A stretch of DNA of 64,000 nt, taken from Bacteroidia bacterium. Its GTDB lineage: Bacteria > Bacteroidota > Ignavibacteria > UBA10030. The first letter of the stretch is position 1. Each line of letters opens with the position of its first letter. A model generated the notes under the pieces. It had not been told where the DNA came from. It worked only from the letters and a program-made list of their open reading frames with translations, and made no database searches. The DNA is taken from positions 19,381 through 83,380 of the forward strand of contig BQML01000019.1 in the NCBI GenBank assembly GCA_022180565.1, read 5' to 3'. Made by a program: the position numbers and the translations under genes. Positions 56,781 to 56,981 of the stretch are shown one piece after another.

Positions 56781-56981
56781 ATGAAATCCTTCGCAAAAAC
56801 CTTGTTCCTGATTGTCGTGCTTTCAGTTACGGGCCTAGGCCTGTTGCAAGCCAATTCCGCAGCTGCAGGACCGCAATGGTGTTCGGTCGTCTGTCCTGCA
56901 AACTGCTTTCACGGTTCGTGTCAATGCGAAATTAATCCCAACTGGGACTGCCTGACTTGGTGCCAAAGCGGATGCCCGTAG
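56781..56981 (+). CDS. small Sec-exported cysteine-rich peptide precursor (66 aa; predicted ~37-aa mature peptide with 8 Cys)
   Basis: ATG 56781 preceded by GGAGGT at 5-nt spacing; MKSFAKTLFLIVVLSVTGLGLLQANSAAAG signal then GPQWCSVVCPANCFHGSCQCEINPNWDCLTWCQSGCP (C-x3-C-x3-C-x4-C-x-C-x7-C-x3-C-x3-C); the ORF-track start 56751 adds an implausible N-terminus. Confidence 0.6.
   Translation: MKSFAKTLFLIVVLSVTGLGLLQANSAAAGPQWCSVVCPANCFHGSCQCEINPNWDCLTWCQSGCP

Follow-up and report, generated by a model that had tools for sequence, protein, structure and literature searches.

The window analysed here is a stretch of 64,000 nucleotides from an assembly labelled Bacteroidia bacterium (GenBank GCA_022180565.1, contig BQML01000019.1, positions 19,381 to 83,380; GTDB class Ignavibacteria, UBA10030), and the element in question is a short open reading frame (ORF) on its forward strand, which encodes a cysteine-rich peptide with a predicted export signal and stands directly ahead of the genes for a putative lidded TonB-dependent transporter. 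The frame runs from the ATG at 56781 to a TAG ending at 56981 (56781–56981, plus strand, stop codon counted in), and its translation is a 66-amino-acid precursor, MKSFAKTLFLIVVLSVTGLGLLQANSAAAGPQWCSVVCPANCFHGSCQCEINPNWDCLTWCQSGCP. At the predicted cleavage site the precursor splits into a signal peptide, MKSFAKTLFLIVVLSVTGLGLLQANSAAA (residues 1–29; 56781–56867, plus strand), and a mature peptide of 37 residues, GPQWCSVVCPANCFHGSCQCEINPNWDCLTWCQSGCP (56868–56978, plus strand), which contains all eight cysteines in the spacing C-x3-C-x3-C-x4-C-x-C-x7-C-x3-C-x3-C and has an average mass of 4074.6 Da in the reduced state and an isoelectric point (pI) of 4.35. The layout of the N-terminus is of the Sec type, with an n-region MKSFAK carrying two lysines, a 16-residue uncharged hydrophobic core, TLFLIVVLSVTGLGLL, and a c-region QANSAAA before the first mature residue, G; small residues occupy the -3 and -1 positions, and there is neither a twin-arginine motif nor an L-x-x-C lipobox. 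On inspection these are the features of a Sec substrate cut by signal peptidase I, and both homologues described below (P0001 and P0004) share them; the signal and its cleavage site were read by eye, so that the exact boundary near AAA/G is a predicted one.

An initial sequence-only reading had described the same 66-residue frame, its eight cysteines in 37 residues with the spacing given above, its Sec-type signal and a well-spaced GGAGGT motif, and each of these descriptions agrees with what we see. The GGAGGT Shine-Dalgarno core lies at 56770–56775 (plus strand), 5 nt before the ATG, and is conserved in all three lineages that carry the gene: the surrounding stretch, AAGGAGGTGCTCTATG, is kept in the corresponding contig (L007) of a sister species, Ignavibacterium sp. 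MAG-04r, and the third lineage has AAGGAGG 6 nt before its ATG. That reading had also called the site unusually strong for the genome, which is right insofar as such cores are a minority feature of the window (among 53 long ORFs, 4 have one ahead of their first start) but overstates their rarity, with 15 of 53 having one before some candidate start. A longer, 76-residue form beginning at the ATG at 56751, the start given in a mechanical ORF list, was rejected; its methionine is not conserved, the sister species reading INSFTKRRCS before the shared MK, and the 66-residue form is therefore the supported one.

Relatives of the peptide are very few. A word-indexed search of 5.8 billion proteins, run twice, returned P0001 from MAG-04r (83% identity, eight of eight cysteines kept) and no relative beyond it, while P0004 emerged when 1.84 billion cluster representatives were scanned exhaustively with HMMER. 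It is a 66-residue protein with 44% identity that also keeps all eight cysteines, in the spacing C-x3-C-x4-C-x5-C-x-C-x6-C-x3-C-x3-C, and it comes from a 1.6-kb contig (L006; SRR32174802) carrying no taxonomic identification. The remaining matches of that scan, P0002 and P0003, are translated repeat junk and not members of the family. A pattern scan of Joint Genome Institute (JGI) metagenomes gave nothing beyond the MAG-04r type, a six-frame hidden Markov model scan of the window and of 45 fetched loci revealed no paralogue, and a cysteine-density scan of 32 DUF4249 loci yielded no further member; within the protein collection searched, the family members carry no NCBI or UniRef source tag. 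The gene is thus known from three lineages in total (this species, MAG-04r and the P0004 lineage), and the description of it as an orphan gives way to a looser one: it is not a strict orphan, but it is very rare, and it founds a tiny new family in the Ignavibacteria.

It is this conservation, rather than the composition of the peptide, that is the decisive evidence for a real gene. Richness in cysteine alone is within chance, since segments with 6–8 cysteines in 40 residues occur by the dozen in out-of-frame translations of related G+C-rich loci; what lifts the ORF above chance is that the eight cysteines are conserved in two other lineages, that substitutions are biased toward third positions and synonymous changes, and that the Shine-Dalgarno site is kept in all three lineages. 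The three-way alignment leaves invariant not only the eight cysteines but also P31, W33, V37, A40, E50, W60 and G64, and the peptide is anionic in every lineage (pI 4.1–4.4). Between this species and MAG-04r the mature part differs at nine codons, with seven of the nine nucleotide differences at third positions (P=0.008) and six synonymous changes against three conservative replacements (F43L, S46A and Q62E; P=0.003 against neutrality), giving a ratio of non-synonymous to synonymous substitution rates (dN/dS) of 0.098, to be compared with 0.10–0.19 for the neighbouring genes. The signal peptide evolves fast, eight of its nine differing codons being non-synonymous (Nei-Gojobori dN/dS 1.4), as is usual for signal peptides.

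Several trivial explanations of the frame were considered and rejected. Overlapping ORFs exist at 56612–56935 (plus strand), 56835–57020 (minus) and 56921–57187 (minus), but the substitutions fit the peptide frame, which argues against a chance ORF or the product of another frame. A cysteine-sensing leader or attenuator is argued against by the signal peptide, the conserved non-cysteine residues, the fixed cysteine spacing, cysteine codons that do not follow one another and the absence of any terminator-like hairpin from 55900 to 57400; a non-coding RNA was likewise set aside, the region having no Rfam match. Judged by its pattern of conservation, the ORF at 56781–56981 is a genuine protein-coding gene that annotation overlooked. 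Two independent assemblies of this species (L042 and L043) match positions 56000–57200 at 100% identity, and their gene calls are empty between the DUF4249 gene and the PIG-L gene, so the expectation that gene callers would miss the ORF is borne out for this species; in the sister species, the ORF was called.

The region from 52041 to 64000 is syntenic with MAG-04r contig L007 (JABRVW010000067.1) at about 83–84% nucleotide identity, and on the strength of this synteny the host is placed as a related Ignavibacterium-like species. The window also carries secY, the genes for EF-Tu and EF-G, rpoB, rpoC, five tRNA genes and glnE, and the setting of the locus is core chromosome and not a mobile element; the five tRNA genes form a cluster at 27750–28781 (minus strand) near the core region with rpoB/rpoC, EF-Tu and EF-G. 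For the sister species there is also a sign of expression. Two contigs, L002 (SRR7091406) and L003 (SRR7091401), each span the genes for an AraC-family regulator, MauE, redoxin, the peptide and DUF4249, and these two datasets are metatranscriptomes of an anammox membrane bioreactor (PMC8822659). JGI contig L001 is identical to L002 over their overlap, and a further JGI contig, L040, extends into the TonB receptor gene and covers 697 of its residues. These contigs are evidence that in the sister species, to which they all pertain, the peptide gene is transcribed within a polycistronic message, with carry-over of DNA into the RNA libraries a possible source of the same contigs.

Downstream of the peptide gene lies a set of intact genes on the same strand. 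The first (57126–58070, plus strand) encodes a DUF4249 lipoprotein with the lipobox LVSC (PF14054, 31.5 bits against a cutoff of 28.5), the putative lid of the adjacent transporter, and the second (58075–60294, plus strand) a TonB-dependent receptor of 739 amino acids with a CarboxypepD_reg-like domain, a Plug and a barrel (PF13715 and PF07715, both above cutoff; dN/dS 0.14). A PDB search with the receptor touched only XusA, at the N-terminus. DUF4249 lipoproteins have been proposed as lids of non-SusC TonB transporters, and for BT2173, which is co-fit with the transporter BT2172, a capping position on the latter is predicted (bioRxiv 10.1101/2023.03.17.533168). The domain make-up of the downstream pair is that of such a DUF4249-lidded transporter operon. 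A spacer of 144 nt (56982–57125) separates the stop codon of the peptide from the DUF4249 gene; it is far less conserved than the peptide ORF and holds no terminator-like hairpin; the gene caller of one assembly extended the DUF4249 gene through it (361 instead of 314 amino acids). The receptor is followed by a four-transmembrane protein (60382–60891, plus strand), conserved in L007, whose similarity to DUF2214 and CopD is weak (E=6.8e-6 and 1.7e-5, neither match reaching the gathering score), and by a lipoprotein (LAVAGC; 60899–62113, plus strand; dN/dS 0.105) with a C-terminal TlpA/ResA-like thioredoxin domain bearing the motif WCHNC. This lipoprotein scores above the Pfam cutoff for AhpC-TSA/Redoxin, has weak matches to ResA/TlpA models in NCBIfam and was called as a 404-residue protein in L042, while its N-terminal domain of about 240 residues has no family match.

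Beyond it, an exported S9 prolyl-oligopeptidase with a beta-propeller, recognised by Pfam, begins at 62192 (plus strand) and runs past the end of the window at 64000, its membership of the operon being uncertain. Genes for exported peptidases are in fact dense in two parts of the window, 40196–47933 and 62192–64000, and include an M28 peptidase, two tandem S15 X-Pro dipeptidyl peptidases, an amidohydrolase and this S9 prolyl oligopeptidase, a set in keeping with the proposal that Chlorobi/Ignavibacteria scavenge peptides in anammox granules (PMC5460018).

A DUF4249 gene lies directly 3' of the peptide gene in three of three lineages, and a TonB receptor is next in line in the two lineages with enough sequence. 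The link with such a pair thus holds wherever the peptide occurs. From 31 other DUF4249/TonB loci of Ignavibacteriota and Bacteroidota genomes, the peptide, MauE, the redoxin, the CopD-like protein and the TlpA lipoprotein are all missing. Judged from these comparisons, the MauE, redoxin, CopD-like protein and TlpA lipoprotein genes are ones that travel with the peptide. The gene order is also peculiar, as 28 of the 31 loci have the receptor before the lid, and the lid-first order seen here (57126–60294) is shared, besides the sister locus, only by L021 and L022, both of which adjoin a multihaem cytochrome gene and have no peptide. Two of the Bacteroidota DUF4249 loci (L027, about 331–530, and L029, about 435–635) have upstream a conserved, zinc-ribbon-like 66-residue ORF with two CxxC pairs (CVNCG and CPKCG), which is unrelated to the eight-cysteine peptide.

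The genes following the receptor raise the possibility that the peptide handles metal. It would then be a periplasmic mini metallochaperone or metallothionein with its thiols kept reduced, binding Cu(I), Zn or a similar soft metal that enters through the TonB receptor and its lid and is handed over to the CopD-like inner-membrane protein, while the TlpA-like proteins keep the cysteines reduced. The anionic character of the peptide, its C-x-C motif and its i/i+4/i+8 cysteine spacing would suit such a role, as would the position of the CopD/DUF2214-like four-transmembrane protein and the TlpA/ResA-like lipoprotein directly after the receptor, where both are kept under purifying selection while MauE has been lost. 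TlpA-type proteins are reductants in copper delivery, and Sec-exported, cysteine-rich, copper-binding bufferins may be encoded with a DoxX-type protein (PMC11626156). The particulars are less favourable: the CopD and DUF2214 matches fall below the Pfam gathering scores and come with no obvious histidine or methionine ligand motif, the TonB receptor has no match to the TonB-copper model, the peptide has no Pfam match to a metallothionein or to Csp, and its three tryptophans, phenylalanine, Val-Val pair and conserved proline and glycine are typical of a disulfide mini-protein and atypical of a metallothionein. The neighbour in the sister species, moreover, is a MauE, a class demonstrated to form disulfides and not to reduce them. 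Taking both sides together, we regard metal handling as unlikely, if one of the better placed of the alternatives.

That neighbour belongs to a module that the present genome has lost. Directly ahead of the sister-species peptide gene stand genes for MauE and a redoxin, with gaps of 5 and 30 nt, and ahead of these the gene for an AraC-family regulator. The MauE/DoxX membrane protein has 142 amino acids, a Pfam MauE score of 59.8 bits and the motif SCGCFGS (DsbB-like CGCFG), and the redoxin is a membrane-anchored, AhpC-TSA/ResA-like protein of 181 amino acids with the motif CPFC. MauE proteins can replace DsbB in Escherichia coli by way of a periplasmic CXC motif followed by FG, probably with the help of a thioredoxin-fold protein such as MauD (bioRxiv 10.64898/2026.03.05.709764), and the sister-species MauE carries exactly this CXC-FG motif. 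In the window, a deletion of 861 bp with its junction at 56618–56630 has removed the stretch corresponding to L007:4620–5480, and with it all of the MauE gene and some 140 codons from the N-terminal part of the redoxin gene. The junction, at which there is no direct repeat, is identical in the window, L042 and L043 (100% identity), which speaks against a misassembly. What is left of the redoxin (TlpA/MauD-like) gene is a 3' stump of 40 codons and a stop at 56628–56750 (plus strand), without start codon or CxxC, identified by tblastn at 84% identity to residues 142–179 of the L007 redoxin; its dN/dS of 0.38 suggests that the deletion is not very old. Ahead of it, at 56103–56540 (plus strand), is an AraC-family (HTH_18) pseudogene with at least two frameshifts, the match switching through frames +2/+1/+2 at 36–65% amino acid identity to the intact L007 AraC. 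It diverges from its orthologue much more than does any neighbouring gene and is uncalled in L042 and L043. The sequence-only reading had not noticed that the stretch from 56103 to 56750 consists of this wreck and the redoxin stump. The sequence upstream of the former MauE start is kept and now abuts the stump, and a promoter may have been retained across the deletion.

As the locus is partly decayed in this genome, one must ask whether the peptide gene, too, has become a relic here, an intact ORF that no longer yields a functional product. The multiply frameshifted AraC gene at 36–65% identity, the MauE/redoxin deletion present in three assemblies, the stump dN/dS that makes the deletion appear not very old and the skipping of the ORF by gene callers in this species would all be in keeping with such a fate, and nine substitutions in the mature part are too few to detect a recent relaxation. 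On the other side, the ORF, its start codon, its Shine-Dalgarno site and its eight cysteines are all intact, as are the downstream operon genes (dN/dS 0.10–0.19); the deletion keeps the pre-MauE region fused 5' of the peptide gene, where its promoter may persist; and the third lineage keeps the peptide with no MauE or redoxin directly upstream. Loss of function confined to this genome thus seems doubtful.

By the measure of adjacency to MauE, the peptide would be a MauE client in the sister species, where the two genes are neighbours, while in the window the MauE gene is deleted and in L006 it is not directly upstream; as to a CxxC partner, the window offers the 40-codon stump, which has no CxxC, and the WCHNC lipoprotein at 60899–62113. 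An unrelated arrangement of comparable type occurs elsewhere, in L044:1986–4406 (JGI Ga0494382_0015660, a high-G+C and apparently actinobacterial contig), where a MauE (SCGCFGS) and a thioredoxin (CEVC) are directly followed by a 474-residue protein with an RR-containing N-terminus and 13 cysteines, mostly near that end, possibly another dedicated MauE client. The MauE relatives at hand are too few to generalise.

Searches of Pfam, NCBIfam and the PDB with sequences and profiles gave nothing significant for the peptide, and together with the HMMER searches they leave its cysteine framework, which the sequence-only reading did not recognise, without a match to any described family. The matches to ferredoxins are at chance level (a 7Fe ferredoxin at E=3.3 and Fer4_5 at E=9.4), and a ferredoxin-type peptide with two [4Fe-4S] clusters was rejected, the spacing differing from a doubled CxxCxxCxxxCP and the signal being of the Sec and not the Tat type. 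The same searches bear on the suggestion that the ORF might be the precursor of a peptide made on ribosomes and modified after its translation (RiPP), its cysteines being altered by an enzyme such as an MNIO or a radical-SAM maturase of CxxxC repeats. The peptide does draw a marginal match (E=0.053) to TIGR04117, a model for radical SAM targets with Cys-Xaa-Xaa-Xaa repeats, and bufferins are Sec-signal, cysteine-rich RiPP precursors that can be encoded with a DoxX-like gene (PMC11626156). The score of 13.6 bits, however, lies far under the 50-bit cutoff and is noise, and no radical-SAM, MNIO (DUF692), DUF2063, LanM/B/C or YcaO gene occurs among the genes about 5 kb upstream and 7 kb downstream, or within 8 kb on either side in L041. 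Membership among the radical-SAM targets was accordingly rejected, as was that among the bufferins: the identified flanking genes include no MNIO or DUF2063, there is no homology to a bufferin precursor, and none of the three family members matches DUF2282 or BUF_6/12Cys in Pfam even at E<=10. With no modifying enzyme nearby, a RiPP is the least probable of the alternatives by a wide distance.

A bacteriocin or toxin was another of the options first raised. The peptide would in this case be oxidised in the periplasm and released against biofilm competitors, as a Sec-dependent bacteriocin or in the manner of STa. It is small and disulfide-rich in prospect, it has a signal peptide, and its rare and patchy distribution resembles that of competition genes, in a host that lives in dense anammox granules; the ancestral neighbourhood, a transmembrane protein and a thiol oxidoreductase beside a cysteine peptide, is the architecture of bacteroidetocin loci, where activity depends on a flanking multi-transmembrane protein and thiol oxidoreductase and the organisms have no general Dsb machinery (PMC6671954). 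Yet the locus shows neither a double-glycine leader nor a C39-peptidase ABC exporter, another way out through the outer membrane and a candidate immunity gene are likewise missing, and the mature peptide is anionic in all three lineages where bacteroidetocins are somewhat basic. A classical cationic bacteriocin is accordingly disfavoured, and bacteroidetocin membership was rejected: the N-terminus is of the Sec type, there are eight cysteines and a pI of 4.35, no ABC or C39 gene is found among the neighbours here or in L007, L041 and L042, and the 1.84-billion-representative scan, having given only P0001 and P0004 as real relatives, brought up no bacteroidetocin. The gene is also chromosomal, single-copy and syntenic between species at about 83% nucleotide identity, it stands beside core genes, its mature part is under strong purifying and not diversifying selection, and its conserved partner is a nutrient-uptake pair. 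Of the claim that the peptide is secreted, export to the periplasm can be deduced, whereas no route across the outer membrane is encoded nearby. We find the toxin reading improbable, and a free-standing toxin seems less likely than an accessory of the transporter.

The explanation we prefer is that the gene encodes an exported, disulfide-rich mini-protein that works with the DUF4249/TonB transporter, and for this chain as a whole, read from sequence, we would put the probability at only about 0.4. The precursor would be translated from the strong, conserved ribosome-binding site observed ahead of it, exported via Sec and cut near AAA/G to give an anionic periplasmic peptide of about 37 residues and 4.1 kDa, whose eight invariant cysteines would most likely form four disulfides and so a compact mini-protein; the disulfides we infer from the MauE motif, from the logic of the bacteroidetocin loci and from the actinobacterial MauE and thioredoxin pair. 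In the ancestral locus, as in MAG-04r, oxidation would be carried out by the adjacent MauE and the membrane-anchored CPFC redoxin as its MauD/DsbA-like partner. With that module deleted, oxidation in this genome would have to rely on another oxidoreductase, candidates being the TlpA-like lipoprotein, whose gene lies four genes downstream, and some enzyme encoded elsewhere. As an accessory of the uptake system, the peptide would most likely act as a small, soluble partner and handle the transported ligand, or present it, in the periplasm or at the surface, a role we favour because its gene always heads the lid/receptor operon, which is the sole evidence on function. The robust part of this proposal is that the peptide belongs to a real, exported, cysteine-rich and transporter-linked new family; its precise role is a matter of inference.

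A number of points weigh against this explanation. The synteny amounts to two independent comparisons, and the contig of the third lineage ends before any TonB receptor is visible; in a crude tree of low resolution, the peptide-linked DUF4249 proteins of the window and of the third lineage are not sisters, so that the link is either old with subsequent losses or has been re-formed. The MauE/redoxin module is gone from this genome, and in the third lineage 236 nt of non-coding DNA, and no MauE or redoxin, directly precede the peptide gene, for which reason the module is best regarded, from the loci compared, as an accessory and not a constant partner. It would then be either dispensable or no more than a neighbour, and MauE may be a generalist. 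The low dN/dS of the mature part rests on nine substitutions and is compatible with a recent loss of constraint after the deletion. The disulfide state, the cleavage site and the location are all deduced, and two AlphaFold runs (predicted local distance difference test, pLDDT, 54–61) returned no confident fold, so that the disulfide topology hoped for from structure prediction was not derivable. We know, finally, of no TonB transporter with a 4-kDa peptide partner.

A more specific form of the same idea would make this ribosomally made, disulfide-locked mini-protein the first of its kind to act as a dedicated ligand carrier or subunit of a DUF4249-lid TonB transporter (a gene-encoded 'phore' of FCB bacteria) and at the same time a natural, dedicated client of the MauE pathway beyond methylamine metabolism, a combination we consider speculative and, at present, unlikely. 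Even short of this, the locus, whose context is unusual, brings to light a conserved family of small proteins that Pfam, NCBIfam and the PDB do not contain, and it gives a handle both on the cargo of DUF4249-lidded TonB transporters, which are widespread in Bacteroidota and Ignavibacteriota, and on the natural substrates of the MauE oxidative-folding pathway. The two sister species, one with and one without the MauE/redoxin module, form a natural experiment on whether the peptide needs it, and since the hosts abound in anammox reactors as flanking bacteria that degrade peptides, metatranscriptomic and metaproteomic data that bear on expression already exist.

Among known systems, the sister-species locus resembles the methylamine dehydrogenase (MADH) small subunit with its MauE and MauD, in that a MauE with a CXC-FG motif and a membrane-anchored CxxC partner stand beside an exported, cysteine-rich client; it differs in that the client, a 37-residue peptide, has no relation to MauA, further mau genes are absent, and in the window the module is deleted. 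With the bacteroidetocins (class IIf) it shares hosts of the Fibrobacterota–Chlorobiota–Bacteroidota group, a small cysteine peptide, a multi-transmembrane protein, a thiol oxidoreductase to which the formation of the peptide's disulfides is ascribed, and genes that annotation often misses (PMC6671954). Bacteroidetocins, however, are about 42 residues long with a 15-residue double-glycine leader, a C39-peptidase ABC exporter and 2–4 cysteines, are basic and target BamA, whereas the peptide described here has a Sec signal and eight cysteines, is acidic, and is accompanied by no exporter but by a downstream DUF4249/TonB pair. Bufferins are likewise small, cysteine-rich proteins with Sec signals that stay in the periplasm, some of their operons including a DoxX-type membrane protein (PMC11626156); they are defined by MNIO (DUF692), DUF2063, and DUF2282 or BUF_6/12Cys, none of which is present here.

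Two further comparisons concern export and uptake. The heat-stable enterotoxin STa of E. coli is made as a Sec pre-peptide and oxidised in the periplasm by DsbA to a small, acidic, multi-disulfide peptide, and our peptide, if oxidised, would likewise be a small, acidic, multi-cysteine product of a Sec pre-peptide in a Gram-negative host; STa differs in having six cysteines, in being borne on plasmids or transposons and in leaving the cell via TolC, and it has no sequence or Pfam relationship to the peptide. The HasA/HasR hemophore and methanobactin/MbnT systems offer the analogy of a small gene-encoded carrier in one operon with a TonB-dependent receptor, but they have dedicated export or modification genes and unrelated carriers, and no export system is encoded here. 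For a coupling of such a peptide to a DUF4249-lidded TonB transporter, we found no described precedent. The downstream pair is itself of the same class as the DUF4249-lidded transporters typified by BT2172/BT2173, by Pfam and by domain make-up, and departs from them in its inverted gene order and in having gained, relative to 31 other loci, the peptide, MauE, redoxin, CopD-like protein and TlpA lipoprotein. Taken together, these comparisons suggest that the peptide may work like the Sec-exported, periplasmically oxidised cysteine peptides with thiol-oxidoreductase helpers while being a member of none of those families.

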